From Candidatus Dormiibacterota bacterium (lineage in GTDB: Bacteria > Chloroflexota > Dormibacteria > Aeolococcales > Aeolococcaceae): a stretch of DNA of 64,000 nt. Shown here piece after piece: positions 1,948 to 50,292 of this stretch. Location of the stretch: contig CAVPXI010000007.1 in NCBI GenBank assembly GCA_963709585.1, positions 480,001 through 544,000 on the forward strand. The letters are read 5' to 3'. The position numbers and the translations under genes are program-made. The notes beneath the pieces are model-generated. The model made no database searches and was not told where the DNA came from. It worked only from the letters and a program-made list of their open reading frames with translations. Positions within the stretch are counted from its first letter, which is position 1. Each line of letters begins with the position of its first letter.

Positions 1948-3201
1948 TGCGTAACCCACTGGAGACGCTCATCCGGACGATCGAGCACTTTGCCGAGGTG
2001 CCAACTCTGGAGCTGACTCCGGCGGAGCTCGGGGACCACCTGGTCCGGCTCCGGCGTGGCATCGATCTCCTCGAGCTCTCCTTCGCGTCCGATGCTGCCA
2101 CGTTCGCGGCGACCGACGAGTACGACGCCCAGGGCTCTGTCACCCCGATCGACTGGATCCGCCATCACTGCCACATGTCCGGCAACGCCGCTGCCAGGGC
2201 GGTCGCGGCTGGAGCGCAGGTGAGCCGTCTCCCCGCCAGTCTCACGGCGCTCGACGCAGGGGACATCGGTTTCGCCCATTTTTCGCTGCTGGCGGGGGTC
2301 GCTCGTGCCGTCGGCGCCAGCTCCAGCGCTGACGGCACGGATGACCCCACGCGTGTCGGCGCCACCAGCTTCGATGAGGGCCCTCTGCTCGAACTGGCCC
2401 GGGAGCACTCGGTCGGCCGCTTCGGTCGTGACTGTGACCACGCTCGCCATGTACACGACGCAGCCACAGTTCTCGAGGAACATGTGACCGCCGCGGAGCG
2501 CAACCGCTGCGAGTTCATTCCCTGCGAGGGCGGCTTCATGGCGATGCGTGGTTTCTTCGACCCCATCGCGGCGGCCACGATCAAGACAGCGGTGCTCCCG
2601 CTGAGCAGACGCACGGGCGCAGGCGACGACCGGCCGCTCCCCCGCCGCCTCGCCGACGCGCTGGTCGAGGTCGCGAGCCACGCCCTTGACCTCGGAGCGA
2701 TCCCGACCACGGGCGGGGCGCGCACCCACCTCCAGCTCACCGCCTCGGTCGAGACGGTGATGGGCCTGGAGGGAGCACCTGGCGGCGAGCTGGAATTCGC
2801 CGGCGCTGTTCCAGCCGCCACCGTGCAGCGGCTCGCCTGCGATGCCCGCGTCCGCCGCGTCCTTCTCGGACCTGATTCCGCGGTGATCGACGTCGGCCGC
2901 GCGCTCCGGTTGCCAAGCCCTGCCGCCCGAGCGGCGCTTCGGGTTCGGTCCGGTGGATGCGAATGGCCCGGCTGTGATCGCCCGGTGGCGTTCACCAGTG
3001 CGCATCACGTGGTGCACTGGGGCCACGGCGGCCGGAGCGACGTGGACAATCTGGTCCTGCTCTGCTACCGCCATCACTGGATGGTCCATGAGGGTGGCTG
3101 GCAGCTGGCCCGGGTCGAGCGCCGGCAACTCCTTGCGATACCGCCTTCGCGGAACTCATCGCTCCTGGATCCGCGCCCCCGATACCGCCGTCGTCGGGTA
3201 G
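1948..3201 (+). CDS. DUF222 / HNH endonuclease domain protein (13E12-repeat-like); likely frameshift near the C-terminus
   Basis: RxADALVE, RLACDA, DVGR, CxxPGC, HHVVHW..GG..D..NL..LC..HH..VH HNH signature. As sequenced the ORF reads to 3299; removing one A at 3152-3157 gives the end ..PPSRTHRSWIRAPDTAVVG* at 3201. Start is uncertain (1911/1929/1948). Confidence 0.85.
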
Positions 3202-3256
3202 CGGCGCCCAGTCGGCCAGGGGTGGCCAATGTCACTAGTGCGGCGTGGTACACCGC

Positions 3257-3290
3257 CGTGTCCGCAAAAGTAAGGTTGGGCGCGTTGGGA
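3257..3290 (+). promoter_or_regulatory. Putative ECF-sigma autoregulatory promoter (copy 1)
   Basis: CGTGTCCGCAAAA-N12-GCGTTGGGA, conserved with identical spacing upstream of the paralogous sigma gene (42651-42684, minus strand). Confidence 0.65.
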
Positions 3291-3295
3291 ATAGC

Positions 3296-3818
3296 GTGAT
3301 CGCATCATCCGGTCTGATGACGTCGGGTGAAGGCGCGCCCGAACGCGCCTTCGAGGCGGTCGTCACGGCGGATGTGAGGCGCCTCTACTCCCTGGCGCTT
3401 TCCATCCTCGATGACGCCGGCGAAGCCGAGGACGCTGTCCAGGAGACGCTGCTCAAGGCGTGGCGAGCCTGGGAACTCGCTGTCGCACATCGATCGTCAG
3501 GCGGCGTGGTTGACGCGGGTGTGCGTCAACCACTGCATCAGCCGGCGCCGGATGCTTCGATCGCGGGGCCTGCCGCTGCCCGGACTGATCGACCGCGCCG
3601 CGCCGTCGCCCGGTGGAGGAGCTGAGGCTGAGCGCATCGACATGGATCGCGCCTACCGGCGGCTGTCCAACAAGCAGCGTGCTGCGATCACGCTCAACTA
3701 CCGACATGGGTATTCCGTGGACGAGTGCGCCGTATATATGGGGTGCCGGCCGGGAACGGTGCGAACCCATCTCGAACGCGCCCTCGCCACCCTTCGAAAG
3801 GAGCTAAAAGATGATTGA
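3296..3818 (+). CDS. ECF RNA polymerase sigma factor (copy 1), one apparent frameshift
   Basis: Region 2 AEDAVQETLLKAWR and WLTRVCVNHC; region 4 RLSNKQRAAITL..GYSVDECA..MGCRPGTVRTHL. The halves join if one A is removed at 3473-3478. Confidence 0.9.
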
Positions 3819-4767: not shown

Positions 4768-4780
4768 GCCGAGACACTCC

Positions 4781-4809
4781 TTGAACACCACCGCATGATG
4801 TGCTAGCGT
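4781..4809 (+). promoter_or_regulatory. Sigma70-type promoter
   Basis: TTGAAC-N17-TAGCGT with extended -10 TG. Confidence 0.55.
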
Positions 4810-4815
4810 TCGGCA

Positions 4816-4945
4816 AAGGCCACCAGATGTAGGGCTGCACCCCTTGCATCCAAGGCTCGTCGGGCAGCGGGCGCCGGGCTCTCTCATCGCCAGGCCATGG
4901 CTCCAATCGTGGCCTCTCCCATCCGGAGGCCCGCTGCCTGCCCCG
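4816..4945 (+). ncRNA. Candidate structured small RNA of unknown family
   Basis: Downstream of the promoter at 4781-4809. Hairpin 4826-4850, then long hairpin GGCAGCGGGC (4863-4872)/GCCCGCTGCC (4929-4938) with inner stem 4892-4899/4908-4915 and CU-rich internal loops. Confidence 0.4.
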
Positions 4946-5022
4946 TCTCGACGCTCGGCGCACGGTCCGCGGTTTCGACGTCGGGTCGGGTCCGCACCCC
5001 CCTGATACGCTTCGATGAGTTC

Positions 5023-5512: not shown

Positions 5513-6686
5513 GTGCGAGTGATCCTCTATACCGGGAAGGGTGGGGTCGGCAAGACGACCGTCGCGGCTGCAACCGCGGTCAAGTGCGCGAACCTCGGCT
5601 ACAAGACGCTGGTGATCAGCACCGACGCCGCGCACAGCCTCGGCGACAGCGTCGATCAGGAGATCGGCGACCACCCGACCGAGCTCGCCCCGAATCTGTG
5701 GGGACAGGAGGTCAACGCGCTCCACGAGCTCGAGGAACACTGGGATCGCATCCACATCTACCTGACGTCGCTGTTCGCGTCGCAGGGCGTGGACGACATC
5801 GTCGCCGAGGAGATGGCGTCGCCTCCGGGGATGGAGGAGGTCGCGAGCCTCATGTGGATCAAGAAGCACAAGCGCGAGGGCAAGTTCGACGTCCTCATCG
5901 TGGATTGCGCGCCGACCGGCGAGACACTCCAGCTGCTCGCGTTTCCAGACGTCGCCAAGTGGTATCTCGATCGCATCTTCCCGATCCACCGGATGATGAA
6001 CAAGGTGGCGCGCCCAATGATGCAGCCGTTCATCAGCATCCCCCTGCCGAGCGACGAGATCTTCAGCAATGTCAAGGACCTGCTCCTCGACCTCGAGGGG
6101 ATGAAAAAGATCCTCGGCGATCCCAAGGTGTGCACCACGCGGATCGTGCTCAACCTCGAAAAGATGGTGGTCAAGGAGGCGCAGCGAGCGTTCACGTATC
6201 TGAGCCTGTACGACTACCTCACCGACCTGGTGGTGGTGAACCGCGTCCTGCCACCCGAGGTCACGGACACCTATTTCGACTCGTGGCGCGAGGCGCAGCA
6301 GCGCTACGCCCTCATGGTCGAGACCGCGTTCTCACCGATCCCGACGTTGCAGACCAAGCTGTTCGACCACGAGATCGTCGGGCTCGAACTCGCTCGCCGA
6401 GATGGGTGAGTCCATCTACGGCGACCTCGATCCTTCGCAGATCTTCTACCACGCGGTGCCCCAGCGCATCCGCAAGGTTGGCAACAACTACGAGCTGCAG
6501 CTCCACCTCCCGTTCGTCGGCAAGGAGGACGTCGACATCAAGCATCGCGAGGGCGAGCTCTTCGTCAGCGTCGGTCCGTACAAGCGCGAGATCTCACTGC
6601 CCCGGGTGCTCAACGGCAAGCGCGTGACCAAGGGGCGTCTCGAAGAGGGCACGCTCCTGGTGACGTTCTCGGATCGCAAGCCATGA
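5513..6686 (+). CDS. ArsA/Get3 family ATPase with C-terminal HSP20-like (alpha-crystallin) domain; one apparent frameshift
   Basis: GKGGVGKTT, STDAAHSLGD, PGMEE, DCAPTGETL motifs. The C-terminal beta-rich domain is in ORF 6402-6686 and joins if one A is removed at 6386-6391 (GLDSLAEMGES). Confidence 0.9.
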
Positions 6687-6946: not shown

Positions 6947-6956
6947 CCGGCGCCGG

Positions 6957-9205: not shown

Positions 9206-10082
9206 GTGATGCGAGTTCACGCGACCGCCGATGTCGAGGACTACGCCGCCGCGGCTGAGGGCTTCCTCAGGGCCGAACCCTGCGCCCGCAACGTGCTGCT
9301 GACAGTCATCGACCTCGTGCGCACCGCGCCCTCGACCTACAGCGCGCCGCCGAGCTTCTGGTGGATCACCGACTCCGGGTCGGTCGTCGGCGCGGCGAGC
9401 TGGACGCCTCCGCACGGCCTGCTGGTGTCCGCGATCCCGCCGGAGGCCGCGGCAGACCTGGCAACCGCGGCGCTCGAACGCGCGACCGAGCTCGGCATCC
9501 ATCCGGGCGGGGTCGTGGGACCGGTGTCATCGGCGCGCGCAGTCGCGGCGGCATGGACGGCCGCCACCGGCGACAGCATCGAGGTGGACCGGACGATTCT
9601 GCTCAACGAGCTCGAACTCGCTCACCGAGGTGGCCCGGCCGCCGGGTACGCGCCGTCCCGGGGTCGCCGGCGACGTGGCGTTGATCGCCGCGTGGCTCGA
9701 CGATTTCAGCGCGGAGATCGAGCACGTCGTTCCGCCGAACCCGAGTGCGATCGCCGATCACATGGTGCAGTCGGGGCGCGTCGACCTCTGGGAGGTCGAA
9801 GGACAGATCGTGTGCATGGTCGGCCATCGGGACGCAGCCGGCGTGGTGCAAGTCGGTCCGGTGTACACGCCGCCGGAGCATCGCAACCACGGCTACGCGA
9901 GGTGGCTGACGTACGAGGTGACCGCCCTCGCGCTCGAGCGGCCCGGCGTCGAGGGCGCCATGCTCTTCACAGATGCAGCCAACCCTGTCTCGAACTCGAT
10001 CTACCGCCAGGCCGGGTATCAGCCGCGCGGCGAACACGTGGAGATCGAGTTCGCGAAGCGGACGGTTGCGCTCGGGCACTAA
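9206..10082 (+). CDS. GNAT acetyltransferase (FR47-like); one apparent frameshift
   Basis: VGPVYTPPEHRNHGYA and LFTDAANPVSNSIY motifs; halves join if one A is removed at 9614-9619. Confidence 0.85.
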
Positions 10083-14331: not shown

Positions 14332-15725
14332 CCGCGACCGTCAGAGAGATCAAGCCGGAATCTCCGGAGCTCGAGGACGTCCTCGAGGCGATCGCGGGCG
14401 CCGCGAACACCCTGCAGGCGGAGGTGTACCTCGTGGGCGGCTTCGTCCGCGACCGGCTGATCGGCGGAGCGCAGGGGAAGGACATCGACCTGGTGACGGT
14501 CGGGACCGACCCGATGCCGCTGCTCGCCGCGGTCGCGTCCGAGTTCGGCTGGCACCCACCCGAACGGTTCGAGCGGTTCGGCACCGCGCAGATCCGGGGA
14601 GGCGCATGGATCGTCGAGGGTGTTCGCGCCCGGGCGGAGCGCTACGACCCCGAGTTGCGCAACCCCGACGTGCGGCCGGGCACGCTCGCCGAGGACGTGT
14701 GGCGCCGGGATTTCACCGTGAACGCGCTCTGCCAGACCCTCGGTGGCGAGGTGATCGACATCACCGGCCTGGGGATCGCCGACCTGCTCGCCGGGGTGCT
14801 GCGCACGCCGCTCGATCCAGCCGTGACCTTTGATGAGGACCCGCTCCGGATGTACCGGGCGGCTCGCTTCGTCGCCCGGCTCGGCTTCTCCCTGGCTCCC
14901 GGGACGATCGAGGCGATGCGAGCCCAGGCGGGGAGAACCTCGATCCTCTCCATCGAGCGAGTCAGCGACGAGCTCCGCCGCCTGCTGGTCGCTCCATATC
15001 CGAGCGCCGGGATCGCGGTGCTCCGCGACGGGGGACTGCTCGAGCTCGTCCTGCCCGAGCTCATCGCCGCGATCGGGATCGAACAGGGCGGGTACCACAC
15101 CGACGACGTCTACGGACACACCCTCAACACCGTCGAGGCGGCGCCGGCCGACCTGGTGACCCGAACCGCCGCGCTGCTCCACGACATCGCCAAGCCGCCG
15201 ACCCACGCGGTCGCCGCGGACGGGCGCCACACCTTCTACGACCACCCGCAGATCGGCGCGGACATGGCCCGGGCGATCCTCACCCGCTGGCGGTTCAGCA
15301 ATGACGAGATCAACGACGTGAGCGAGCTGGTGCGCCTCCACCTGCGCCCGATCCAGTACGACCGCGAGTTCTTCGGGGACGCGGCGGTGCGCAGGTTGAT
15401 CCGCGACGCCGGGCCGCTGCGTGCCAGGATGCTCGACCTCGCCCGAGCGGACACCGTGGCGTCCGCCTATCCGACCCTCGAGGAGCTCGACGAGCTCGAC
15501 GAGCGGATGGCAAGCCTCGACGCCGGCGGCGTGGTGTCCGCGATGTCCGACCCGCTGCGTGGCGAGGAGCTCATGGAGTTGGCGGGGCGCGGACCCGGAC
15601 CCTGGGTGGGACGCGCGAAGGCAGCGATCCGCGAGGCGGTGATTGAGGGAACGATTCCACCCGGAGACGCGGCGCTCGCGCGCGCATGGGTCGACGCGCA
15701 TCGTGAGATCCTGAGTGGCGACTGA
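14328..15725 (+). CDS. cca: CCA tRNA nucleotidyltransferase with HD domain
   Basis: YLVGGFVRD, DIDL, RRDFTVNA, EDPLRMYRAARF, LLHDIAKP. Confidence 0.9.
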   Translation: MTATVREIKPESPELEDVLEAIAGAANTLQAEVYLVGGFVRDRLIGGAQGKDIDLVTVGTDPMPLLAAVASEFGWHPPERFERFGTAQIRGGAWIVEGVRARAERYDPELRNPDVRPGTLAEDVWRRDFTVNALCQTLGGEVIDITGLGIADLLAGVLRTPLDPAVTFDEDPLRMYRAARFVARLGFSLAPGTIEAMRAQAGRTSILSIERVSDELRRLLVAPYPSAGIAVLRDGGLLELVLPELIAAIGIEQGGYHTDDVYGHTLNTVEAAPADLVTRTAALLHDIAKPPTHAVAADGRHTFYDHPQIGADMARAILTRWRFSNDEINDVSELVRLHLRPIQYDREFFGDAAVRRLIRDAGPLRARMLDLARADTVASAYPTLEELDELDERMASLDAGGVVSAMSDPLRGEELMELAGRGPGPWVGRAKAAIREAVIEGTIPPGDAALARAWVDAHREILSGD

Positions 15726-15803: not shown

Positions 15804-16184
15804 ATGTTGAGCAAGCTCCGCGGCGCCAAACGCCTTTTCGTCGACTTGCCACGCATGCTGCGGCTTGCGTACTGCCTGATGTTCGACGCGCGTGTGCCCG
15901 GCTACATGAAACTCGCCTTCGGCGGTGGACTCGCGTTGATCGCCCTTCCGGTGGTTGACCTTCCGGAATCCCTGCCGGTCATCGGCGAACTCGACGTCCT
16001 CGCGCTCAGCCTGCTCGCAACCCGCGCATTCATCGCAGCGTGCCCTCGTCACATCGTCGCGGAGCAGGAGGAGTTGATCACCCAACGGCGCAGTCGCTTC
16101 GACGATGACGTGCGCAACGGCGAGCGTATCGCCCTGATGATCTACCGGCGCCTCCGTCCCGAAGAGCAGGAGACGGTATCGTGA
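15804..16184 (+). CDS. YkvA/DUF1232 family membrane protein
   Basis: DARVP..K and DLPESLPVIGELD pattern. Confidence 0.7.
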   Translation: MLSKLRGAKRLFVDLPRMLRLAYCLMFDARVPGYMKLAFGGGLALIALPVVDLPESLPVIGELDVLALSLLATRAFIAACPRHIVAEQEELITQRRSRFDDDVRNGERIALMIYRRLRPEEQETVS

Positions 16185-16627
16185 AGGTTCTGTTTCTGAA
16201 GGAAGTGGCAGGAACAGCCAAGCCCGGTGACGTTCGCGAGGTAACCCCGGGATATGCACGCAACTTCCTGTTTCCTCAGCACCTCGCGGTGATCGCTGAC
16301 CAGAACACCGTCGACCAGATCCGGCGGCGTGAGGAGGCGACGCGACGGCGCGTCGAGAAGGCGCTCATCGACGCCAGGGAGACCGCGCAGCGGCTGCGCA
16401 AGCTGACCGTCACCGTCTACGCCAAGGCCGGCGAGGCGGGCCGCCTCTTCGGTACCGTCACCACCGCCGACGTCGCCAAGCAGCTGAAGCGTGAAGCGGG
16501 CATCGACATCGACAAGCGGAAGATCGAGATCGATCCGCCGATCAAGTCCCTCGGGCCCCACGAGGCCACCATCGAGCTCCACCCCGAGGTCACGGAGACA
16601 CTCAAGGTCGTCGTCGCGGCCCAATGA
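16181..16627 (+). CDS. rplI: 50S ribosomal protein L9
   Basis: GYARNFLFP, GRLFGTVT, IDKRKI. Confidence 0.97.
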   Translation: MKVLFLKEVAGTAKPGDVREVTPGYARNFLFPQHLAVIADQNTVDQIRRREEATRRRVEKALIDARETAQRLRKLTVTVYAKAGEAGRLFGTVTTADVAKQLKREAGIDIDKRKIEIDPPIKSLGPHEATIELHPEVTETLKVVVAAQ

Positions 16628-19241: not shown

Positions 19242-20274
19242 CGCCGGTGAACCCAAGGACCCCGTTCGGGGACCACGCCAGTTCGTCAACGCGGTGCTGG
19301 TGGCGCTGAGCGCTGACGACTTCCGCCCGCTGATCGCCTACCACCACCTCGATGCGGGCACCAGCGTCGAGCGCCGGCTGGAGAAGGCGCTCGCCAACCT
19401 CACCGCGCTCCGCCAGGTGACCGCCGAGGCGGTCCGCGAGGAGCGGCTCGACGCCGAGGAGACCCTGGCGCTTTCGCTCACCACCGCCGACGACATCGAA
19501 GCCGTCGCCCAGCGCCTCGCCGCCTCGTGTGTCGCCACCCTCGAGGATCGCCTCTCGAGCGCCACCTCGGAGTCGTCGGCGCGCGGGACGTCGCTGTCGA
19601 TCACCATGCACGAGCTTCGCCGACCGCTCACGATTCTCAACAGCTACGGGCAACTGCTCAGCGCCGGGATGCTCGGCACCCTCCCCGGACAGCCATGGTG
19701 GCCATCGAGGGGATCACCGCAAGCACCGAGATGATGGTCCGCATGGTCAATGCGCTCGCCGAGCTGGCTCGAACTCGAGGATCCCGACGACCGCCTCGCG
19801 CTCGAGGTCATCGATGCCGAGGAGGTGGTCGGCGAGGCCATCGAGCACGTCGCGATGGAGGCGAAGCTGCGTAAGTCGACGATCACGAGCGAGAGCGAGC
19901 ACGGGCTGACCATGAAGGGCGATCGCCGCCGCCTCATCCTCGCGATGACCAATCTGCTCGGCAACGCCGTCAAGCACGGGCCGATGGGATCCCCGATCGA
20001 GGTGCTGGCTGCGCGCGACGGCGATTCGGTGCGCTTCACCGTGCGCGACCATGGCATGGGGTTCCCGATCGCGGACACGGGCCACCTCTTCGACAAGTAC
20101 TTCCGATCGGTCGCCGAGCGGCAGCGCAAGGTGCCCGGTAGCGGCCTCGGCCTGTACATCGTGCGCACGGTCGCCGAGCGGCATGGCGGAACCGTGGCGG
20201 CTCGGAGCGTCCCCGGGAGCGGCGCCGAGTTCGACATGACGATCCCGCTGCATCGTGAAGAGGCCATCGGATGA
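19159..20274 (+). CDS. Sensor histidine kinase (HisKA + HATPase); two compensating apparent frameshifts
   Basis: HELRRPLT, NLLGNAVK, DHGMG, FDKYFR, GSGLGL; frame changes at ~19686 and 19771-19776. Confidence 0.85.
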
Positions 20275-27073: not shown

Positions 27074-27363
27074 TCAGGCCTTGGCGGGCCGCCGCCAGCC
27101 GGGCGCGTCCGCGGCCTCCCGACCGGGCGCTTCGCAGGCGCGGCGGTCGCCGCCTTCGGGGGTCTCCCGACCTTTCGCTTCGCCGGCGTGCTCGACGCGG
27201 CGGCGGGCGATGGGGCGGATGCCATGGCGGCGAGGATCGTCCGCTCTGTCTCCTCGAGCCGCTCCGCCAGTGCGAGGACGCGGCTTCGTGCCCCACGTGT
27301 CGCGGTCAGCGCGTCGACGAGCGATACCGTTGCGCCGCCACGCTTCTGCTTCTTTCCAGCCAT
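27074..27363 (-). CDS. Small basic protein with a coiled coil and two AT-hook motifs; 3' end inferred
   Basis: VLALAERLEETERTIL, KRKVGRPPK, KRPVGRPRTR. A natural end PAKA* at 27074 needs one extra base near 27088; as sequenced the frame runs on into moeB. Confidence 0.6.
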
Positions 27364-27394
27364 GATCGAAGCGACCCTACCATAGACTGCGACG

Positions 27395-28921: not shown

Positions 28922-29562
28922 TCGGGTGCCGGTTCGGCATCCCGGGTCGTCGCGGGTATTCATCGCTGGTGGGCACCAGCTTGCGCACCCGCAGCACAGC
29001 GTCGGTCGGCGCGTCGGGAGCGCTCCCACCGCAGGCGGCCGCCGCCGCGGCGCAACCGGAGAGTGCCGCCGGGGCGCCGGCGACGAGCGCGCAGAGACTG
29101 CCGCCGACACGCAACAGCGGCAGCGCGAGCTCGCAGAGCACCGGCGGCGGCGCGGTCGCTCGGGAGGTCGCGAGGTCGAAGGCCTCGCGCAGACCATCGC
29201 GGCGACCCGCGTCCTCGGCGCGGAGCGCCTCCACGACAACGCCGGACAACCCGAGCAAGCCGGCGACGTGGACGAGAAACCCGCTCTTGCGCCGGTCCGA
29301 AGTCGAGGAGGGTCACCGAGAGGTCCGGCCGCAGAATGGCGATCACCATCCCCGGCACGCCGCCACCCGATCCGATGTCGACGACGCTGCACCCCGCCGG
29401 CGGCGCAGCAACCCCGAGCAGCTCCTCGGCCTCGACGACGTTGCGCGACCACATCTGCGCTCGCGGGATCGACGTCAGGTTGAGACGCGCGGACCAGCGG
29501 TCGAGCTCGTCGAGATACGCCTCGAGAGTCGCGTTCACGTCGCCAGTCTGCAGCGGTCCCAT
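28914..29562 (-). CDS. rsmG: 16S rRNA (guanine-N7) methyltransferase RsmG; one apparent frameshift
   Basis: NLTSI, DIGSGGGVPG, RAE, SRA, YPRRPG.P; repairing 29299-29304 restores LLDSDRRKSGFL. Confidence 0.88.
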
Positions 29563-29856: not shown

Positions 29857-30001
29857 TCCGCCGGGCACGCCTGAGCGAACTCAATCCAAACGGCGCTCCC
29901 TCGTATGTTCCGTCTGCAGTCGTGTGACGCGGCGGTGACGGCCGGTCACGGCGCGATGACATCGGCGGGCGACTCCGGCAGTCGATGGGAGACTGGCCGC
30001 G

Positions 30002-31298: not shown

Positions 31299-33012
31299 AT
31301 GCAGCAGCCGATCGGTGAGCACGCGCTGCTTGCTGAACTCGAGGACCGCTGCACTCATCGATCCCGACGGCAGCGTTGCCTGGCTGTGCTGGCCGTGGAT
31401 CGATTCGACCCCGTTGCTCTTCTCGATCCTTGACGCCGACCGCGGCGGTGCCTTCTCCGTACGACCCACGCGACCGGATGCTCGCGTTGTGTCGCGCCGC
31501 TATCACCCGCGATCGCTGGTGCTCGAGACGGTCTGGGACGTTGGTGGAGCGCGGCTCATCGTGGAAGACGCGCTCGACCTCGATGTGGGGCCGCTGCTGA
31601 TTCGCAGCCTGCGCGCCGGAGGGGAAGCCGTCGAGGTCCTGGTGCATCTCACCGCACCGGCGTGGCCCGGGACTCCAGCGTCTTTGCGCGTGTTCGGTGA
31701 CTCGGTCGAGCTCGCCGGCGTGAGCCGGGTGGTCATCCACGCACCGTCGCAATGGGAGGCGACGCCCGGTGGCGCAACATGTGAATTGACGGTCCGCCCT
31801 GGGAGTCCAAAGACGGTCACGCTCGGCGCTGCGGACATGGTGCAACGCGCGGTATCCATCAACTCAACGCTCGCCGAGTGGCATCGAACAATCCCCGAAG
31901 CCATCGCCTCCATCAACGTCCGACTCCCCGAAGCCAACGATCTCCTCGCGACGACCGCGGCGGTGCTCCTCGGCCTGCGCCGCCGGGACGGAGGCATCGT
32001 CGCGGCCCCGACCACATCACTGCCGCAGTGGCCCGGATCGGCACGCACCTGGGACTACCGCTACTGCTGGCTGCGCGACTCGTCGCTGGCGGCGCTCGCG
32101 ACGCTGCGGCTCGGGCTGACCGATCCGGCGCGGTCGCTTGGGGCCTTCATCGGTGCGGTCGTGACCGAATCCGGACCGGTCCCGCTCGTTCGGGTCGACG
32201 GGACCGCGCCTCCGGACGAGGTGGAGATTCCCGAGCTCGCCGGCTACGGCGGCGCTCGTCCTGTCCGGATCGGCAACGCCGCGGCCGGCCAGGTGCAGCT
32301 CGACGTGCCCGGCGAGGTCATCGAGCTCGCGACGTCGCTCGATCGCGAATCAGCCCTGCCCGACCAGCTCCGGGCGGCGGTGCCGATCCTCGCCGGGTGG
32401 CTGGTCCAGCACTGGCGCGAGCCTGACCACGGCATCTGGGAGATCCGCGGCGCGCGGGCGCGCTACACGCATTCGTTGATCACGGCGGCCAGCGGACTCG
32501 AAGGCGCCGCTGCGCTCGTCGACAAGCGGGTCATCTCCGGCGACGCGGCCGCATGGCGGCACGCCGCGGCTGCGGCTGCGGCCGACCTCGGTACGGCGGG
32601 TGGAGCGCTGGAGCTGCGCGTCGACGGCGGCGGAGCCGACGCTGCGCTCGCCCAGGCAGCGCTCCTCGGCGGGCTCGACGTGATCGCCGGGCGGATCGAT
32701 CCCACCCTCGAACTGATCGTGGCGCGACTCGCGCGTCGCGGTCTGGTCGACCGCTACGTGGGGCAGCCCGACCCGCTCTCGGACCCCGCCGCCCCCTTCG
32801 TGTTTCCGACCTTCTGGCTGGCCGGGGCGCTCGCCGCGAGGGGGCGCGACGGCTCGCGATGGCTCGAGTCGGCGCTCGCCACCCGGGGACCGCTCGGGCT
32901 CTTCGGCGAGGTCGCCGATCCGGTCGATCATTCGCCGCTCGGCAACTATCCGCAGGTGCAGAGCCATGCGGCGTTCGTTCTTGCCGTGACTGCCCCACAG
33001 TTTCCTGCGTAG
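31299..33012 (+). CDS. Glycoside hydrolase family 15 (trehalase/glucoamylase-like); apparent frameshift near the N-terminus
   Basis: AAPTTSLP, WDYRYCWLRD, QLDVPGE, GIWEIRG, GNYPQ; repairing 31335-31340 gives MQQPIGEHALLADSRTAAL. Confidence 0.88.
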
Positions 33013-37239: not shown

Positions 37240-37617
37240 GTGGCCGACCTCTCCAACTACCGGTTCACCCCCAGCCACGAGTGGGTCCGCGTCGAGGGCT
37301 CGAAGGCGACGGTGGGGATCAGTGATCACGCCCAGGCGCAGCTCGGTGACGTGATCTTTCTTGAGCTTCCCGCCGCGGGCACCGAGGTGAAGGCGGGCGC
37401 GAAGTTCGGGGCCATCGAGTCGGTGAAAGCGGCGTCCGACCTGTACGCACCGGTGAGCGGCACCGTGGCCGAGGTAAACGCCGCTCTGACCGACCGCCCC
37501 GAGCTCGTCAACTCCGATCCCTACGGAGAGGGCTGGATGCTCCGCATCGACAGCGCGGGTGACGACGCAGGTGACCTTCTCGACGAGGCCGGCTACACGA
37601 AGCTGGTCGGCGCCTGA
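37240..37617 (+). CDS. gcvH: Glycine cleavage system H protein
   Basis: HEW, LGDVIF, ESVKAAS lipoyl lysine, DPYGEGW. Confidence 0.96.
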   Translation: MADLSNYRFTPSHEWVRVEGSKATVGISDHAQAQLGDVIFLELPAAGTEVKAGAKFGAIESVKAASDLYAPVSGTVAEVNAALTDRPELVNSDPYGEGWMLRIDSAGDDAGDLLDEAGYTKLVGA

Positions 37618-37635
37618 CCTAGACTTTCTCGACGG

Positions 37636-37712
37636 GGTCAGCTAGCTCAGCTGGTTAGAGCGCGCGGTTCACATCCGCGAGGTCGAGGGTTCGAGTCCCC
37701 CGCTGACCACCA
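37636..37712 (+). tRNA. tRNA-Val (anticodon CAC)
   Basis: Acceptor GGTCAGC/GCTGACC-A-CCA, D arm AGCTCAGCTGGTTAGAGC, anticodon arm CGCGG-TTCACAT-CCGCG, T loop TTCGAGT. Confidence 0.95.
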
Positions 37713-37749: not shown

Positions 37750-38347
37750 TCACCACACCAACGGGATCAGCCGCTTCGTCCGCTTGGTGTATGCCGCATA
37801 TCCGGGAAGGTCGCGGCGCAGGAGTGCTTCCTCGGCTGCTACGCGCTGGTGGTACGCGACCCCGAGCAGTCCCGCTACCACCGCGACCACCGGAAGACTC
37901 CGCGACGTTAGTGCAAATCCTGTCCAGATCAGCAGCGATCCCGCGTACCCCGGATGGCGCACCAATCTATATGGTCCGCGCTCCACGATGCGCTGCGCCT
38001 CCTCGACGCGCAGCGTTCGCGAATAGGATTGCCCGAGCGTGCGCATCGACCAGGCCCGAATGCCGAGCCCGCCTGCTTCGAGCCCGACGCCCACCGCACC
38101 CGCTGCTCGAGGAAGCTGCGGCCGCCACCGGAGTCGCAGCAAGGGCGCGGCTATCGCGGCCGTCGTGTACGCGGCGACGATCATCCGCGTGGTCCCGCGA
38201 TCATTTCGCGAAGCGTGGAGACTTCGACGCCGCGCCGCGCCGGCGCGTCGATACCTCGAGGGCGAAGAAACCTGCAACGCCCGCATACCCGGCCGCGAAC
38301 CATGCGATTCCCTCGGCGCGCCTGCGTCGCTCGGACACCATGGTCAT
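37750..38347 (-). CDS. Isoprenylcysteine carboxyl methyltransferase (ICMT/Ste14) family membrane protein; one apparent frameshift
   Basis: GPYRLVRHPGYAG, EEALL, Y..Y...T.RLIP; the N-terminus joins by repairing 38220-38225. Confidence 0.85.
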
Positions 38348-38384: not shown

Positions 38385-39534
38385 ATGAGTGACGACCGTC
38401 CCGTACTCCTCTTCGGGGAGACGTACCACCACCCCGACATCCTGTATCGCACCGGATTCCTCGCGCCCGATCCGGTGGTCGTCGTCGACCGCGGCGGCTC
38501 GGACACGGTGCTCTGGACGAGCGCGCTCGAGGAGGGCCGAGCTCGCAAGCAGGCTTCGGTGGGCGAGGTGCGCAGCACCGTGGAGCTGGACATCCCGGCC
38601 GGGCCCGCGGGAGGCAACGAATACGACGGTTGGGCGGCCCTGTTGGTGGCCGTCTGTCGCGAGCACGGTCTCAGTGCCGTCGATGTGGACAGCGACTTTC
38701 CCACCGTGCTCGCCGACCACCTCAGGCACAACGATGTCGACGTCCGGCCGCGCACGGACATCTACCAGCAGCGGCGCCGGATCAAGACACCCCAGGAGGT
38801 GGTGTGGATCACCTCCACGGAGAACGCCGGCATGGCGGGGCTCCAGAAGGCCATCGATGTGATCGCCGCGGCAGAGATCCGCGACGGCCTGCTCGTCCAC
38901 GAAGGGCGCAACCTCACCAGCAAGGACCTCATCTTCACCATCGAGAGCCACCTCCTCGAACAGGGCTGCAGCACCGAGGACTTCGATCGCCTGCGGCGGC
39001 CCTGAATCGGCGGATCCTCACCGGGCGATGAGCGACGTGATTCGCGCGGGCCTGCCGATCGTGCTCGACATCTACCCGTTCAACAAGACCACGCGGTACT
39101 GGGGCGACATGACCCGCACCGTCGTTCGCGGAACGCCGCCGCCGCAGGTGGAGCGCATGTGGGATGCCGTGCTCGAAGCCCAGCAGGCGGGCCTCGACAC
39201 CGTGAAGCCGGGAGCGAACGGACGCGACGTGCATTACGCGTGCTGCGAGGTCTTCAAGAAGCACGGCTACGCGTCGCTGGCCAGGCCGTATCGAGATATC
39301 CAGAGCGATGCGCGCTTTATTCACGGGACCGGGCACGGGCTCGGGCTCGAGATCCACGAGTTCCCCCGCGTCAACGAATCGGACGTCGTCCTCGAAGTCG
39401 GGGATGTGATCACTGTCGAGCCCGGGCTCTACGACCCGAGCCTTGGTGGCATCCGCATCGAGGACCTCGTGGTGGTCACCGCGACCGGCTGCCGAAACCT
39501 CACCACCCTGCCGAAGACCTTCCGGCTGGCCTGA
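38385..39534 (+). CDS. Xaa-Pro aminopeptidase (M24 family); one apparent frameshift
   Basis: RRIKT..E, DIYP..YWGDMTRT, HGTGHGLGLEIHE, VEPGLY, GIRIED; repairing 38979-38984 gives EDSIACGGPESADPH. Confidence 0.9.
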
Positions 39535-39637: not shown

Positions 39638-39675
39638 GCACCCCGGGCGCCGCAAGCCCAGAGGAAAGGAGGTGC
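39638..39675 (+). promoter_or_regulatory. Putative S6:S18-binding rpsF leader RNA
   Basis: GCACC (39638-42) pairs with GGTGC (39671-75) overlapping the GGAGG SD; CCG element followed by GGGC-GCCGCAA-GCCC hairpin; TG-N-TACACT -10 near 39548. Confidence 0.6.
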
Positions 39676-39680
39676 CACGC

Positions 39681-40142
39681 ATGGTGCGTGACTACGAGCT
39701 GATGTACATCGTCCGGCCGGAGCTGGAGGATGACGCGGTGCGCGTCGCCGTGAAGTCGGTGCGCGGCCTGATCGAGTCCCAGGGCGGCGAGGTCGTCAAG
39801 ACCACGCTGTGGGGCAAGCGGCGTCTCGCCTACGAGGTCAAGCGGCTTCGCGAAGGGCACTACGTCCTGGTCGTGTTCCACCTCGACGGCGACAAGGTCG
39901 CGGAGATCGAGCGCGCGCTCCGGATCCACGACACCGTGTTCCGCCACCTCATCGTCGTCCACGAGGGTCCGATGCCGGAGCCCGAGGCCGAGATCGAGGA
40001 GGTGCAGGGACCGATCGAGCCCGCTGCTGACATCGACGGCGCAGACGCGGATACTGTCGATGCAGGGTCCGTGGGTGGGGACGACGATCTGGAAGCAGAC
40101 GACGTGCCCTCGGCAATCGACGAAGACGAAGGAGATTTGTGA
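39681..40142 (+). CDS. rpsF: 30S ribosomal protein S6 with long acidic tail
   Basis: YELMYIVRP, WGKRRLAYEV, GHY; SD AAGGAGGT. Confidence 0.96.
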   Translation: MVRDYELMYIVRPELEDDAVRVAVKSVRGLIESQGGEVVKTTLWGKRRLAYEVKRLREGHYVLVVFHLDGDKVAEIERALRIHDTVFRHLIVVHEGPMPEPEAEIEEVQGPIEPAADIDGADADTVDAGSVGGDDDLEADDVPSAIDEDEGDL

Positions 40143-40597
40143 TGGCGGGTTCCCTCAATCGCGTGATGCTCATCGGCAGGCTGACCCGCGACCCCGAGCT
40201 TCGCTACACGCCGAGCGGCACCGCCGTGTGCAACCTGGCGCTCGCGACCAATCGCTACGGGAGCGACCCGGCGACCGGGGAGCGCAAGGAGTTCACCGAC
40301 TACCACGACGTGGTCGTCTGGAACCAGGGCACCCGCAAGCTCGCCGAGACCACCGCGCAGTACCTGCAGAAGGGCCGGCTCGTCTATGTCGAGGGCAGGT
40401 TGCAGACCCGCTCCTGGGACGACGCCCAGAGCGGCCAGAAGCGCTACAAGACCGAGGTCAACGCCAACGATGTGCAGTTCCTGGACAGCGCAGGCGGCCG
40501 TCAGGAAGGTGGTGCGCCTGCCGGCGACGGCGGCGCCGCGGTGCCGGTCACGGTTCCTGCGGGTGGCGACGTCGACCCTGATGACATTCCGTTCTGA
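40142..40597 (+). CDS. ssb: Single-stranded DNA-binding protein
   Basis: [29 protein letters not shown]-terminal DDIPF. Confidence 0.97.
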
Positions 40598-40608
40598 GCT
40601 GGAGAGCC

Positions 40609-40836
40609 ATGCCTGATTTCGACCGCCGCCGCCGCAAGGTGTGCAGCTTTTGCCTGGAGCACATCGATTTCATCGACTACAAAGAGGTCACGCGCCTGCG
40701 CCGCTACCTCTCGGAACGGGGCAAGATCCTGCCGCGGCGCATGACCGGCACGTGTGCCCGGCACCAGCGGACGCTGACGGTTGCGCTGAAGCGGGCGCGG
40801 CACATCGCGCTGTTGCCATTTGCGGAGATCCGCTAA
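40609..40836 (+). CDS. rpsR: 30S ribosomal protein S18 (zinc-binding form)
   Basis: CSFC, IDYK, GKILPRR.TG.CARHQR. Confidence 0.97.
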
Positions 40837-42131
40837 GAGCTCGGTCCGGCGCACGGAGTTGGGCTCAAGGCATCGTTGAGGTACGCGGCGCAGCTGCCTG
40901 GTGCCGGACCGCCGCCTTCGAAGACTTCGACCTCCCAACCCAGCGCTGATGAAGCCACGACCGACAGGGAGACCGGTTGACCTGGGACCTGGTCAGATGG
41001 CGTGAAGAATTCGGGGAGACCCCCGCAGCGGATCGTCGCGACTTGCGGAGTGCTGGTCGCGATCTTCAACGATCCAGCCCCTGAGCAGTCGACTCCGATC
41101 GAGTAGACCGTGGCCGCGGTGAACGCCGAGATATCGCCCGATCCCCGGCCATACGCGGTGGGTGCCACTGCTCGGGCGCCGGCGGAGGGCACCAAAATCG
41201 GCGGCGGTCCATCTGTCATGAGGATCTCCCAACTGACCGCGGAGTTGGCGGTGACATATGTCGTCACTGAACCGCCATTCGGGCCACCTTGGTTCGATTC
41301 AAACCATGAGCCATGTCCCCCTGAGGGCGTGGAGCACCCGGCGATCTCCGAGCCGAAACGTTGGTTTTGCCCTATCTGCACAGTGTCCGCAGCGGTGGCC
41401 GAGTTGCAGGCGACCTGAACATAAACGTCTTCGCCTGGTGCGAGCACGAAGGCGGGGAGAGTCGCCAACCCTGTGCCGTACGTCACCGGGACGAGAACAC
41501 GCGAGTCCGGATCAATCGTGAACGGCGGCAACAATGCCCTGCTCTGGGCCACGAAGATCTCCCAGCGCATCGATGGGTCGGCGGTGACCCGCAGCGTCAG
41601 CGGCTTGTCGTCGTAGGCTTTTGGACCCTCCACCGTCATCGTGGTGACGGCAGTGTCGGCCGAGCATTGCTCGAGGACGTTGTCGATCACGTGGTTGGTT
41701 GAGGCAATCTCGAACGAACCCGGCCCCAGACAGTCGAATTGGATATAGAGCGTCCCCTGCGGCACAAACGTCCGGAGTTGCAGCGGTCCATGGCCGCTGG
41801 TCAGCGAAATCACGACGTGGGCAGCAGTGGGAACGCCACGGTCACCGAGCAGGGGCATCGCCTTGAGGGGCGATGCAGAGGGAGAGGCGGACCTGGCGGC
41901 TGGTCCGGGTGCCGGATTGTCGTGACTTCTCAGCTCGATGGCAAACACCGCGATGCCCGCCGCGACGACGGCAGCAGCGGCCAGCCCGGCAAACAGGTTG
42001 AACATCGTGCGCCGTCCGCGACCCGGCGACTCGACCTCGATGTCCGTCAGCCCCGACGGCGGGGTTGATGATTCGATGTGCTCGAAGAAGACGCGCAGCT
42101 TCGAATCGAGACGAGGGTCGATGTCAACCAT
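40833..42131 (-). CDS. Putative anti-sigma / membrane sensor with three tandem extracellular repeat domains
   Basis: Paralog of 3811-4767 ([13 protein letters not shown] vs MIDIGPRLDSRLR); one TM helix; three two-Cys repeats ending WEI/WEV. Confidence 0.7.
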
Positions 42132-42645
42132 CGCCAAGCTCCTTTCGCAACGTGACGAGGCCTCGTGCGAGGTGGGCTCGCACGGTTCCGGGCCGGCAGC
42201 CCATGAAGACGGCGCACTCTTCAACGGAGTAACCGTGCCGGTAGTTGAGCGTGATCGCGGCCCGCTGCCTGAGCGAGAGCCGGCGATACGCCCGGTCGAT
42301 GTCGACGAACTCCGCTGCCGCCCCCGGGTCGCCGCGTGACGCAGCGTCCTCGATCAGCGCCTGCGGCGGCCACCCGCGCAAGCGCAGGTGACGGCGCCGG
42401 CTGATGCAGTGGTTGACGCAGACGCGGGTCAGCCACGAGGCGGGACGCTCCATCCCCGCCACCGAGCCCCAGGACCGCCAGGCCTTGAGCAGCGTTTCCT
42501 GAACCGCATCCTCAGCCTCACCTTCGTCTCGAAGGATCGAGAGCGCGAGCGAGTAGAGCCGCCTGGCGTCCGGAACGGCAACGGCCTCGAAGGTCCGTTC
42601 GGGCAACGCCTCGCCCGCCGGAACAACGCTCGCCGGTGCAATCAC
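42124..42645 (-). CDS. ECF RNA polymerase sigma factor (copy 2)
   Basis: AEDAVQETLLKAWR, WLTRVCVNHC, GYSVEECAVFMGCRPGTVRAHL; GTG start by alignment to copy 1 (ATG at 42651 is an alternative). Confidence 0.92.
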   Translation of the reverse strand: MIAPASVVPAGEALPERTFEAVAVPDARRLYSLALSILRDEGEAEDAVQETLLKAWRSWGSVAGMERPASWLTRVCVNHCISRRRHLRLRGWPPQALIEDAASRGDPGAAAEFVDIDRAYRRLSLRQRAAITLNYRHGYSVEECAVFMGCRPGTVRAHLARGLVTLRKELGDG

Positions 42646-42650
42646 ACTCA

Positions 42651-42684
42651 TCCCAACGCTCTGCACCGCGGTTTTGCTGACACG
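42651..42684 (-). promoter_or_regulatory. Putative ECF-sigma autoregulatory promoter (copy 2)
   Basis: Minus strand CGTGTCAGCAAAA-N12-GCGTTGGGA. Confidence 0.65.
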
Positions 42685-42710
42685 CCGTACCTATACTGGG
42701 CCGCAGGCGC

Positions 42711-44814: not shown

Positions 44815-45617
44815 TCAGGGCTGCGCGAGGATGGCCTTGTGCAGCAATGCGTTCACCGTGTCCGGCGCTTCGAGATTCACCATGTGCCCGAGTCCGGCAC
44901 GTCGATCCGCTGCGCACCGGGAATGCGCCGCGCGAGCAGATCGGCCATCGTCCGGAAACACGGCACGTCGAGCTCGCCGACGACAACGGTCGTGGGCACG
45001 CCGATCTGCTCGAGCATGGCGATCGGGTCCAAGTCCGTTCGCGCCTGGGGATCCTCATGCGTCCAGTGGAATCCCGAGTACGGTTCGACCAGCGCGGCGA
45101 GACGTCGCGCCAGCTGCGCGTCGCGGCACGCCGGGGCGAAGAGCGGATGCCGGAGCCAGGTGGCTCTCGCCGCGGACATCCCCTCGGTTGTCGCGGCACG
45201 CTCCGCATCTTTCATGCCTTGCTCGGACGCGGCGTCCCACTCCACACCATTGAGCACCGAATCCAGCAGTACCAGACCGCGGACGCGCTCAGGCGCGACG
45301 AGCGCGGTCTCGAGGACGACGCGCCCACCCATGGACAATCCGACAAACACTGCGCTGTCGATCCCAAGTCGATCGAGCAGCGCAAGCAAGTCTGCGCTGT
45401 GCGTGTAGGGGATCCCGGCGGAGGGCTCGCTCGATCGTCCGAAACCGCGCAGATCGCAGCGGACGACGGTCGCGACGTCGCGAAGGGCGGCAACCTGCTC
45501 GTCCCACATCCGGCCGTCGAGTGAGAAGCCGTGGACGAGTACGGCTGCCGGGCCCCTGCCATCGACGTCGTAGTGGAGGTCGGCTCCCGCAACCGGGAGC
45601 CGACCCTCAGTGTTCAC
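44815..45617 (-). CDS. Alpha/beta hydrolase; apparent frameshift near the C-terminus
   Basis: HGF, DLRGFGRS, GLSMGG, GELD; adding one base near 44886 restores GHMVNLEAP and a stop at 44815. Confidence 0.85.
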
Positions 45618-45716: not shown

Positions 45717-46894
45717 ATGGGTGAACCACAGCTCCGCGTTCCCGGTCCGACCCCGCTCCCCGCTCGCGTGGTCCGCTCCGCGAGCCGTCCCATGATCAAC
45801 CACCGCGGCCCGGAGTTCGCCGAGGTGATGGATGACGTCATCGGCGGGCTGCGCTGGGCGCTGCGCACCGACAACGACATTCTGCTGTACCCCTGCAGTG
45901 GCACCGGTGGCCTCGAGGCCGCCGTGGTTAACCTGCTGAGCCCCGGCGAGCAGGCGCTGTTCTGCGTCATGGGATCGTTCGGGGAGCGCTGGGCAAAGAT
46001 CGGCGACACCTACAGCGCCGAGGTGGTGCGGCTGACCGTGCCTCAGGGCGAGCCCATCGATCCGGAGGACGTCGAGCGCACGCTTGCCGCGCACCCCGAC
46101 GTCACCACCGTCTTCGTCACGCACAACGAGACGTCGACCGGGGTGACCAACGACCTCGCGGGGATCGCGGGTGTTGTCAAGAGTCGCGGCAAGATGCTCG
46201 CGGTCGACAGCGTCAGCGGCGCCGGTTGCCTGCCGCTGGAGACGGACGCGCTCGGCATCGACGTCCTCGTGACCGGCTCCCAGAAGGGCTGGATGGCCCC
46301 GCCAGGCATCGCGATGATCGCAGTCAGCGCGGCGGCGTTCGCTCGTTCGGACACCGCCACGAACCCTCGCTTCTACCTCGACTTCGCCCGCGAGAAGAAG
46401 GCGCAGGACAAGAAGCAGACGGCCACGACGCCGCCAGTGTCGGTGATGTTCGCGCTCCAGGAAGGCCTGGCGATGCTTCGCGAAGAGGGACTGGACAACG
46501 TCTGGGCCCGCCACGCTCGCGTCGGCAGGATGATCCGCGCCGGTGTCCAGGCGATGGGCATGAGGCTGCTCGCCGCCGACGGTCATCGCAGCAACACCGT
46601 CACCGCGGTGCACAGCCCGGCGGATACACCGAGGCGTTGAAAAATCTGCTGACGACGTTGCGGACGGCACACAGCCTTGTGCTCGCGGGCGGCCAGGAAT
46701 CGCTGCAGGGGAAGATCTTCCGAATCGGCCACCTCGGTTTCATCGACGACGCCGACGCCTACACGATCCTCGCCCTGCTCGAGGCCGGACTGATCGACAC
46801 CGGACTGCGAACGCGCGGCGGACTCGCCATCGCGGCGGCACAGGCGGAAGCACGCGGGACGGTCGCGCAGGCAGAACCCGTCAGCGTCAGGTGA
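45717..46894 (+). CDS. Class V PLP aminotransferase (alanine/serine-glyoxylate family, possibly SerC-equivalent); one apparent frameshift
   Basis: PGPT, HRGPEF, SGTGGLEA, HNETSTGV, GSQKG, FRIGHLG; frame change near 46630. Confidence 0.9.
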
Positions 46895-48507: not shown

Positions 48508-48543
48508 GGGCCTGACGCTCCGTCCGCGGACGGAAGCACACGC

Positions 48544-49824
48544 ATGGCCATCGTTCTGCCCTTCGAGGGCACTCGCTACAATCCCGAGCACGTGAAACTC
48601 GGCGGCGTGCTCGCGCCGCCGTACGACGTCATCACGGACGCGCAGCGCGAGGAGCTGTACGGCCGCGATCTGCGCAACATCGTCCGCATCGACTACGGCG
48701 TGTCGTACCCGAACGACGTCGAGGGCGTCGACGACCGCTACACGCGCGCCGCATCCTTTCTGGCGTCCTGGCTGGACCTCGGCGTCCTGGTCCGCGACGT
48801 CCCCGCGAGCTTCTACGTCGTCGATCACCACTTCCAGCACCCCGATGGCACTCGGCGCATGCGCCGGGGTGTGCTCGGGACGGTGGCGGCAACACCCTGG
48901 GAAGCCTCCGACCTGCGTCCGCACGAGCGCACGCTGCGCGGCCCCAAGTTGGACCGCCTTGCGCTCCTTCGCGCCACGCGAGCCCAGACGAGCCCCGTCT
49001 TCGCGGTGTGGACCGACGCCGACGGCATCGCCGAGACACTCGACGGCGTGGCGACCGGCGACGCGCTGCTGGGCGGGCGCATCGATGGAGAGATCGCGTC
49101 GGAGAAGTTGCTGCTCTGGCGCGTCGCCGACCAGAAGCAGGTGGAGGCGATCGAACGCGCTGTGCGCGGCGCCGCGCTGTACGTGGCCGACGGCCATCAT
49201 CGCTACGAGACCGCCGCCGCATACGCAGCGGAGCGCCGTGACGCGGACGCAGACGCACCACCGGGCGCGCGCTGGGAGCGCTGCCTCGTCTACCTCGCCG
49301 CAGCGGACGATCCCGGCATCACGATCCTGCCCACGCATCGGCTCGTCCGGCCGGGACCCGGGATCGCCTTCAGCCTCGACGACCTCTGGGCACGTCTCGA
49401 TGACGTCTACGAGGCGGTGCCCGCAGCCGACGGGCGCGCGGCGCTCGCCGCGGCGGCGTCGATGCACTCGACCCACCACGCGTTCGCGGTGGTCGCGCAC
49501 GACGGCGCGGCGGTGCTCCGGCGTCCGCGACGCGGCGAGGGCTCGCCGCGTGACCGGCTCGACGTCGCCGTGCTCGAGGCCGAGGTGCTCGGGCCTGCCG
49601 GCGTGTCTCGCGACATGATCAGTGGCGGCGCGCTGGCCTACACTCGCGACCCGGGCGAGCTCGACGCCGCGGTGACACGTGGTGAGGCAATCCTCGCCTT
49701 CGGCGTCCTGCCGGTGAGCACCGACGAGGTGATCGCGGTTGCCGGCGCCGGGGAGACGATGCCGCAGAAGTCAACGTACTTCTACCCGAAGGTGCCGACC
49801 GGGCTGGCATTGTTCGAGGTCTGA
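48544..49824 (+). CDS. DUF1015 family protein
   Basis: PPYDVI, PHERT, ADGHHRYE, ILPTHR, MPQKSTYFYPK. Confidence 0.92.
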   Translation: MAIVLPFEGTRYNPEHVKLGGVLAPPYDVITDAQREELYGRDLRNIVRIDYGVSYPNDVEGVDDRYTRAASFLASWLDLGVLVRDVPASFYVVDHHFQHPDGTRRMRRGVLGTVAATPWEASDLRPHERTLRGPKLDRLALLRATRAQTSPVFAVWTDADGIAETLDGVATGDALLGGRIDGEIASEKLLLWRVADQKQVEAIERAVRGAALYVADGHHRYETAAAYAAERRDADADAPPGARWERCLVYLAAADDPGITILPTHRLVRPGPGIAFSLDDLWARLDDVYEAVPAADGRAALAAAASMHSTHHAFAVVAHDGAAVLRRPRRGEGSPRDRLDVAVLEAEVLGPAGVSRDMISGGALAYTRDPGELDAAVTRGEAILAFGVLPVSTDEVIAVAGAGETMPQKSTYFYPKVPTGLALFEV

Positions 49825-49910
49825 TCGCGTCGCTGTCACCTCGGCGTGTTTGGCTCGAGGCCGTCAACGGGTAGAGTTGAAGCGTTCAACCGCGAACAGG
49901 GAACCATTGA

Positions 49911-50292
49911 TTGCCTACCTACGGATACCGCTGCCCGACGTGCTTGACCGAGTTCGAGCTCTGGCAGTCGATGCGCGACGATCCCGGCGCTTCCTGCCCG
50001 ACGTGTGGCGCCGCCGCGACGCGCCAGTTCTTTCCCGCGGGCATCGTCTTCAAGGGCTCGGGCTTCTACAAGACCGACAGCCGCAGCGCCGCCTCGTCCT
50101 CGATCACGTCGGACGGCGGGGAACTCGAAGAGCGCGACCAACGGCACCAAGCCTGACGGCGCAAAACCCGGCGCCGCCAAGGCCGACGGCCCAAAAGCCG
50201 ACGGCGCAAAGTCCGACGCCAAGACCCCCGCATCCGGAGCTTCTTCATCGACCTCGACCCCAAAACCCGTCTCGACTGACGCCGCCAGTTGA
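49911..50292 (+). CDS. FmdB-family zinc-ribbon protein with low-complexity tail; one apparent frameshift
   Basis: MPTYGYRCPTC...CPTC, FKGSGFYKTD; repairing 50121-50126 adds the KPDGA/KADG repeat tail. Confidence 0.85.

Follow-up and report, generated by a model that had tools for sequence, protein, structure and literature searches.

Doubled adenines at GACTC/GAGTC split genes in a Candidatus Dormiibacterota assembly: likely long-read consensus errors that probably trace adenine methylation

The DNA considered here (the window) is a stretch of 64,000 nucleotides from a Candidatus Dormiibacterota bacterium (assembly GCA_963709585.1, contig CAVPXI010000007.1, positions 480,001 to 544,000), with a guanine plus cytosine (G+C) content of 68.6%. 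Twelve of its roughly 60 genes, or about one in five, are split by 13 single-base errors, and ten of these lie at one motif, GACTC or its complement GAGTC (jointly GASTC, S being C or G). In all ten, one base has been added, which gives GA[A]CTC, GA[A]GTC or GACT[T]C, and removal of one A (or of the opposite T) repairs the reading frame. The initial annotation had described ten frameshifts sharing a doubled A in this motif. All ten hexamers are indeed present at the predicted positions, a frame switch coincides with each, and every one has been pinned as a one-base insertion at the hexamer.

Frame switches were detected by a codon log-odds scan combined with Pfam profiles over 88 open reading frames (ORFs) of the window; the scan replaced a hidden Markov segmentation by GC content at the codon positions, which had left many regions unassigned. 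A search with GcvT as the query yielded 19 close loci in synteny with the window, almost all of them bearing the label Candidatus Dormibacterota, with GcvT identities of 59–89%. At the DNA level, 15 of these loci are 75–88% identical to the window over most of 26–51 kb, and the other four are about 65–78% identical. Lesions were pinned to within one codon by DNA alignment to between one and 16 related loci, or by alignment to proteins that are 63–98% identical; proteins served for the four sites beyond the fetched loci, namely those in the ArsA, GNAT, kinase and DUF222 genes. Related loci and proteins are designated below by L and P numbers, respectively.

The clearest case is rsmG on the minus strand, where positions 3–79 and 80–147 of the GidB profile are found in two frames that meet at 29299–29302. 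The extra base lies in GAAGTC at 29299..29304 (GACTTC on the coding strand), and the window is one base longer here than 15 of 15 related loci. In the M24 peptidase gene (plus strand), the hexamer is GACTTC at 38979..38984, with an extra T corresponding to an A on the other strand; Peptidase_M24 positions 50–208 begin at nucleotide 38980 in the second frame, and the extra base stands against 14 of 14 loci. The gene for a methyltransferase of the ICMT/PEMT family (minus strand; GACTTC on the plus strand, 38220..38225) gives its PEMT/ICMT match in the downstream frame only, and the window exceeds 12 of 12 loci by one base. An ECF sigma factor gene carries GAACTC at 3473..3478 (plus strand); Sigma70_r2 ends at about 3476, Sigma70_r4_2 (region 4) follows in the next frame, and the extra A is absent from 8 of 8 loci. 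The GH15/trehalase-like gene (plus strand) is affected near its start, by GAACTC at 31335..31340, with a TREH_N match that begins at 31330. Here 15 of 16 loci lack the extra A, and GAACTC is found in the sixteenth, L005, as well. An FmdB-type zinc-ribbon gene (plus strand) is affected in its tail, by GAACTC at 50121..50126, downstream of the Zn_ribbon_8 match; the extra A stands against one of one locus, L001 being the sole locus that reaches this far.

The remaining four insertions, all an extra A in GAACTC on the plus strand, were placed by means of proteins. In the ArsA/Get3-family ATPase gene (6386..6391), ArsA_ATPase positions 2–294 end at about 6389 and ArsA_HSP20 is found in the next frame; P0122 (96% identical) reads GLDSLAEM over the junction, where the window reads GLE and NSLAEM in two frames. 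Similarly, the GNAT acetyltransferases P0241 (98%) and P0242 (95%) have NELDSLTEV, and the window has NELE and NSLTEV in two frames at 9614..9619 (an ARAGORN call of tRNA-Pro at 9755–9850, inside this gene and with no Rfam support, is false). For the histidine kinase gene (19771..19776), P0001 (96% identical, 388 aa) reads ALAELARLEDPDD, including ELARLEDPDD, and the window changes frame at 19771. In the tail of the DUF222/HNH endonuclease gene (3152..3157), homologue alignments stop at query residues 413–416, equivalent to about nucleotides 3150–3159. The tails of P0362 (PPSRTHRSWIR) and P0393 (PPSQTHRSWIR) equal the other frame of the window past 3152, and those of P0362, P0393 and P0361 agree with that frame as ...PPSR|THRSWIRAPDTAVVG.

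Past the lesions, the coding signal and the Pfam matches remain at full strength in the shifted frames, and the repaired readings agree with proteins that are 96–98% identical. The suggestion that these genes are intact and that the lesions are errors of the assembly is borne out: the extra base is absent from the relatives, with the one exception in L005, and coding continues beyond each site.

Two further length differences lie in non-coding DNA. A GAACTC at 29877 falls between genes, in variable DNA where eight relatives are one base shorter than the window; this may be an eleventh lesion, in an alignment that is poor there. Between gcvH and the tRNA-Val gene (37636–37712), at 37617–37633, the window has GACTTTC and ten relatives have GACTTC, a difference in a T run that could be an error or real.

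The four lesion hexamers occur 80 times in 64 kb, and the probability that ten 9-nucleotide intervals would all meet one of them by chance is about 3e-18. In every lesion it is the A of GASTC (or the T opposite) that is doubled, never G or C; seven lesions affect GACTC and three GAGTC. An A affected on both strands mirrors the symmetry of a site that is methylated on both strands, and as an error footprint it is consistent with such methylation. Penetrance is partial, as had been proposed, with lesions at 10 of 97 GASTC sites; none is found at the 89 GAWTC sites (W being A or T; Fisher p = 0.0017). The proposal that GASTC rather than GANTC is the modified motif does not follow from these counts: the confinement to GASTC describes the error and not necessarily the enzyme, and a basecaller may fail differently at GAATC/GATTC. 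Adenine methylation at GANTC is of the CcrM or HinfI type, and type IIS restriction-modification at GAGTC/GACTC is of the PleI or MlyI type. No longer motif was found around the lesions, the bases beside them resembling those beside intact sites.

An unbiased census was also taken of indels private to the window and not divisible by three in length. Wherever relatives cover the window, the events found were the motif sites, the loss of one base at 46630 (see below), and otherwise only variable intergenic indels. Further breaks could be hidden in genes that have no relatives or Pfam matches.

Such a census of private indels was taken in each of the 19 related loci too, an event being counted where at least 85% of at least five covering loci agree; the sequencing platforms of these relatives were judged by contig names. 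Five loci (L005, L007, L009, L014 and L019) have MFD bin names together with Flye-style contig or chromosome labels, and the remaining 14 have names in the style of short-read assemblies (k141_, k127_, k147_, NODE_, palsa). Excerpts of PMC12313526 describe the MFD long-read metagenome-assembled genomes (MAGs) as products of R10.4.1 sequencing, Guppy sup basecalling and Flye assembly, polished by a single round of Medaka and not with short reads. In the MFD loci, five of 12 private events are one-base insertions at lesion hexamers, distributed over three of the five loci: GAACTC and GAGTTC in L005, GAGTTC in L009, and GAACTC and GAAGTC in L019, each private against 14–18 loci. The 14 short-read-style loci, with approximately 398 GASTC sites, gave 26 private events, not one of which is of this type. 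The GH15 site of L005, a long-read MAG of a different species, has the identical doubled A at the same position as the window.

Two long-read MAGs of other phyla were screened by an ORF-merge test, in which the doubled base is deleted and the sequence is checked for a longer ORF. This test is uninformative at 69% GC, as 29 of the 80 hexamers in the window itself are flagged, and is informative only for L055 (48% GC), which has 24 of the hexamers and 38 GASTC sites and gave no flag; the flags in L026 correspond to adjacent genes.

Database proteins provide a further view of the same lesion. Five proteins that are 96–97% identical to the window ArsA (5513–6683), namely P0121, P0124, P0155, P0201 and P0222, have odd lengths and lose the frame at differing points. 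P0121, from another assembly, has a GLE|LAR break that is the same as that of the window, and continues after it into the next gene, for a total of 478 aa. P0155 has a break, YFE|LLARGAAA, at the GACTC of position 6278, where the window itself is unbroken, and the frame of P0222 breaks at a C run. All five appear to be mis-translated ArsA products, and public protein sets seem to hold many such products of this clade.

Taken together, the direct observations are that bases have been added, that they lie at one motif, that relatives lack them and that such lesions reappear in other long-read assemblies. Because downstream coding and domains are kept, because the lesion recurs in L005, because MFD and short-read-style loci differ in the census, and because mis-framed ArsA proteins exist, the ten frameshifts are almost certainly artefacts of assembly and not part of the DNA of the organism; that methylation caused them is probable, although less secure. 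We infer both the platform of the window and the methylation of its motif. The best joint explanation, to which we assign a probability of roughly 0.7, is that these are consensus errors of a long-read assembly at GACTC/GAGTC and that methylation of the A is their most likely cause. The assembly would most likely be nanopore-only, and its systematic errors would arise where the A in the second position of some GACTC/GAGTC sites is written twice, on one strand or the other, each error adding one base and thereby splitting an intact gene. The most likely trigger would be an N6-methyl group on that A, on both strands, at GASTC or at the wider GANTC. The methylated A would shift the signal beyond what the basecaller and polisher were trained on, and the error would survive at about one site in ten.

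The premise that modified bases cause motif-bound nanopore errors agrees with the available portions of the literature, in which assembly errors are tied to methylated motifs, GANTC included (PMC12710330, PMC12392509, PMC10687267), and are fewer with methylation-aware models (PMC12710330, PMC12392509). In addition, a preprint (10.64898/2026.01.14.699587) reports that CycloneSEQ nanopore insertions are higher in native than in amplified DNA, the profiles for R10 being more variable.

A number of points weigh against the link to methylation. L007 and L014, which are long-read loci and closer to the window, have no lesions at 65 GASTC sites; a different methylome could account for this, and so, equally, could another version of the basecaller or another sampling rate. 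With relatives included, 12 of 15 lesions have the doubled A on the plus strand of the contig. A strand-symmetric process does not predict this bias, and its source may be the polisher or chance. The portion of PMC8919816 at hand describes GANTC as under-represented in Alphaproteobacteria that methylate this motif; the window, judged by this measure of GANTC methylation, shows no clear avoidance, with an observed/expected ratio of 0.83 for GACTC and 1.00 for GAWTC, and the values for the 19 related loci are 0.92 (GACTC) and 0.98 (GAATC/GATTC). No match to a DNA methyltransferase family was detected in the 88 scanned ORFs, which represent 64 kb of the genome. In the accessible parts of the three error studies (PMC12710330, PMC12392509, PMC10687267), the errors described at motifs are for the most part substitutions and not insertions. 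The link to methylation, drawn from an error footprint, is plausible.

The same artefact might also arise with no methylation at all, if a particular version of a basecaller or polisher mis-writes the GACTC/GAGTC context whatever its chemistry. The strand bias, with its hint of a polisher, would fit such a cause, as would the penetrance of just 10 in 97 sites and the lack of a methyltransferase in the ORF scan. In addition, the relatives with lesions trace to two samples, one of them common to L005 and L009, and those free of lesions to other samples; within the MFD project, according to the same excerpts of PMC12313526, samples differed in software versions and sampling rate, so that a run effect is possible. 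However, four long-read MAGs of that project (L007, L014, L026 and L055) are free of lesions at a total of 136 GASTC sites, and a context-only error would have to strike the A on both strands, in keeping with the symmetry of the motif. The literature, in the portions seen, likewise places such errors at methylated motifs and reports fewer of them with methylation-aware models. On balance, an error of sequence context alone is fairly unlikely.

Explanations in which the extra bases are real fare much worse; even taken together, they have only a slim chance of being correct. Formally, the bases are in the given sequence, and motif-targeted mutation, for example at the sites of a restriction-modification enzyme, might create true pseudogenes. 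This would require ten genes to be broken at once, including the housekeeping gene rsmG and the M24 peptidase gene, but there is no other decay, and the coding signal and Pfam matches run on in the shifted frame. The occurrence of identical lesions, matching in position, in a second species (L005) and a second assembly (P0121), and the absence of this lesion type from all 26 private indels of the 14 short-read-style loci, also speak against mutation, which we consider highly improbable. Programmed +1 recoding at GAACTC, by ribosomal frameshifting or transcript slippage, has the shared hexamer alone in its favour. AA is not slippery, the sites have no homopolymer run, and in relatives, where the extra base is missing, a single frame encodes each of these proteins. 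Moreover, the genes hit are unrelated to one another, and the lesions occupy either strand and differ in codon phase. Recoding is already contradicted by these observations, and its likelihood is close to nil.

Long-read consensus error at a methylated GASTC site, the preferred explanation, would belong to a known class of error, which is encountered here in an unusual insertion form. The modification-mediated nanopore errors at GCAGC/GCTGG in Listeria, as portrayed in the sections of PMC10687267 available, resemble those in the window in being bound to a short motif and in recurring at the same locus; they are also lineage-specific, resist Medaka-type polishing and can be corrected from close relatives. 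In Listeria, however, they are mismatches, and the tool described there ignores indels, whereas the window has one-base insertions that shift the frame, at a site whose modification is deduced. The GANTC errors of agrobacteria and Brucella (PMC12710330, PMC12392509, again in part) concern the same motif family, with a methylated A and clustering at the motif. In contrast to the insertions in the window, at the C/G-centred half of the motif only and in Candidatus Dormibacterota, they were reported mostly as errors of the single-nucleotide polymorphism (SNP) kind, in Alphaproteobacteria with CcrM. Long-read homopolymer indels have the same outcome, single-base frameshifts that split genes; unlike these, the ten insertions in the window turn a single A into AA (or TT) inside a fixed 5-mer. 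Neither A-doubling insertions at GASTC nor methylation in Dormibacterota was found described in the literature searched, of which supplementary tables (e.g. Table S5 of PMC12710330) may list such errors.

Apart from the insertions, the initial annotation had proposed four single-base deletions, of which those at 19686 and 46630 are confirmed, that at 44886 is probable, and that at 27088 is instead a difference of 45 nucleotides. In the histidine kinase gene (plus strand), one base is lost at 19687..19688, away from the motif: P0001 has LGTLPETAMVAIEG (LPETAMV) and the window CCCGGACA (CCC GG ACA). This loss offsets the GAACTC insertion 85 nucleotides downstream; one long ORF persists, in which about 28 codons between the two errors are wrong, and tblastn crossed the stretch 19687–19776 as a single segment. 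P0027 (432 aa), a relative of 19627–20920, has the end of the kinase fused to the start of the neighbouring fumarase (HATPase_c and Lyase_1), and looks like a frameshift read-through in a different assembly. In the class-V aminotransferase gene (plus strand), one base is lost at 46630..46631 (ACACC-GAGG), also away from the motif, where the window is one base shorter than 11 of 11 related loci. The candidate loss in an alpha/beta hydrolase gene (44884..44887, minus strand) lies 4–6 nucleotides from an intact GAGTC at 44890. Its match to Abhydrolase_1, positions 4–237 of 245, stops at the break and the next frame gives GHMVNLEAPD. A one-base loss at about 44886, removing the reading SGHMVNLE, is probable, as a G-H pair, presumably including the catalytic His, is expected near the end of a hydrolase. 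One of the three losses is thus near a motif, which is not significant; all three (19687, about 44886 and 46630) are probably ordinary residual errors of long-read sequencing.

The supposed frameshift at 27088 lies in a variable region in which the window is short by 45 nucleotides, a multiple of three. This region contains a small ORF on the minus strand (27080–27369), the product of which is basic and has GRP repeats resembling AT-hooks; the length of the ORF varies among relatives by multiples of three.

Two odd residues had, in addition, been read as substitutions at the same motif; both are plausible from homologues in the PDB, and neither is demonstrated. In the gene for the CCA-adding enzyme (plus strand), GAGTTG at 14652..14657 is a candidate substitution of GAGTCG, the window having ELR where PDB relatives have KSR (9ns4), NSR (9kma), GAY (1vfg) and AKL (3h37). 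In the YvcK/CofD-family gene (minus strand), AACTC on the plus strand at 61433..61437 (GAGTT in the coding sense) is a candidate substitution of GACTC; the window has GELQ, and PDB relatives have GESS (2o2z, 2hzb) and GETN (2ppv). With such distant homologues for comparison, the case for either is weak. Substitution-type lesions were also sought at GASTC positions conserved in the relatives; there are only four such positions, which makes the test powerless. Two of them differ in the window (27506, GATTC; 39004, GAATC), and the GAATC at 39004 looks like natural variation, as some relatives read GAATC too.

Several features of gene order were noted in passing. Besides the broken ECF sigma factor gene (3245–3815), the window has a second one at 42127–42690, and the former is 72–77% identical in DNA to the sigma factor gene that relatives have at the position equivalent to the latter. 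The gene at 3.3 kb comes after the DUF222/HNH gene, where coding scores are low, and may be part of a duplicated or mobile segment. A block at 43.7–45.7 kb (SnoaL-like, DUF1801 and alpha/beta hydrolase genes) is matched in DNA by almost none of the 19 loci, and its flanks are syntenic with them on both sides. The genes rplI, dnaB, rpsF, ssb and rpsR adjoin one another in many bacteria. In the window, rplI-dnaB (16178–17994) lies about 22 kb from rpsF-ssb-rpsR (39666–40830); judging by the relatives, which have the same rpsF-ssb-rpsR context, the separation looks like the normal order of the lineage.

At the rate seen in the window, a genome of a few megabases would contain hundreds of false pseudogenes, and gene catalogues derived from such MAGs would inherit them. 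The errors are nevertheless easily found and masked, as they occur at a fixed word and the true reading is visible in relatives. If the link to methylation were confirmed, error footprints would offer an inexpensive first estimate of the methylomes that uncultured lineages have. It is conceivable, if rather doubtful at present, that adenine methylation at GASTC or GANTC is shared by several species of Candidatus Dormibacterota, namely those represented by the window, L005, L009, L019 and the sources of P0121 and P0155. If so, the error footprints of public long-read MAGs would be enough to reveal this shared methylation, with no need for raw data, and a motif common to several species would point to a CcrM-like methyltransferase that is conserved, and perhaps an orphan, beyond the Alphaproteobacteria, and not to a restriction system that varies between strains.

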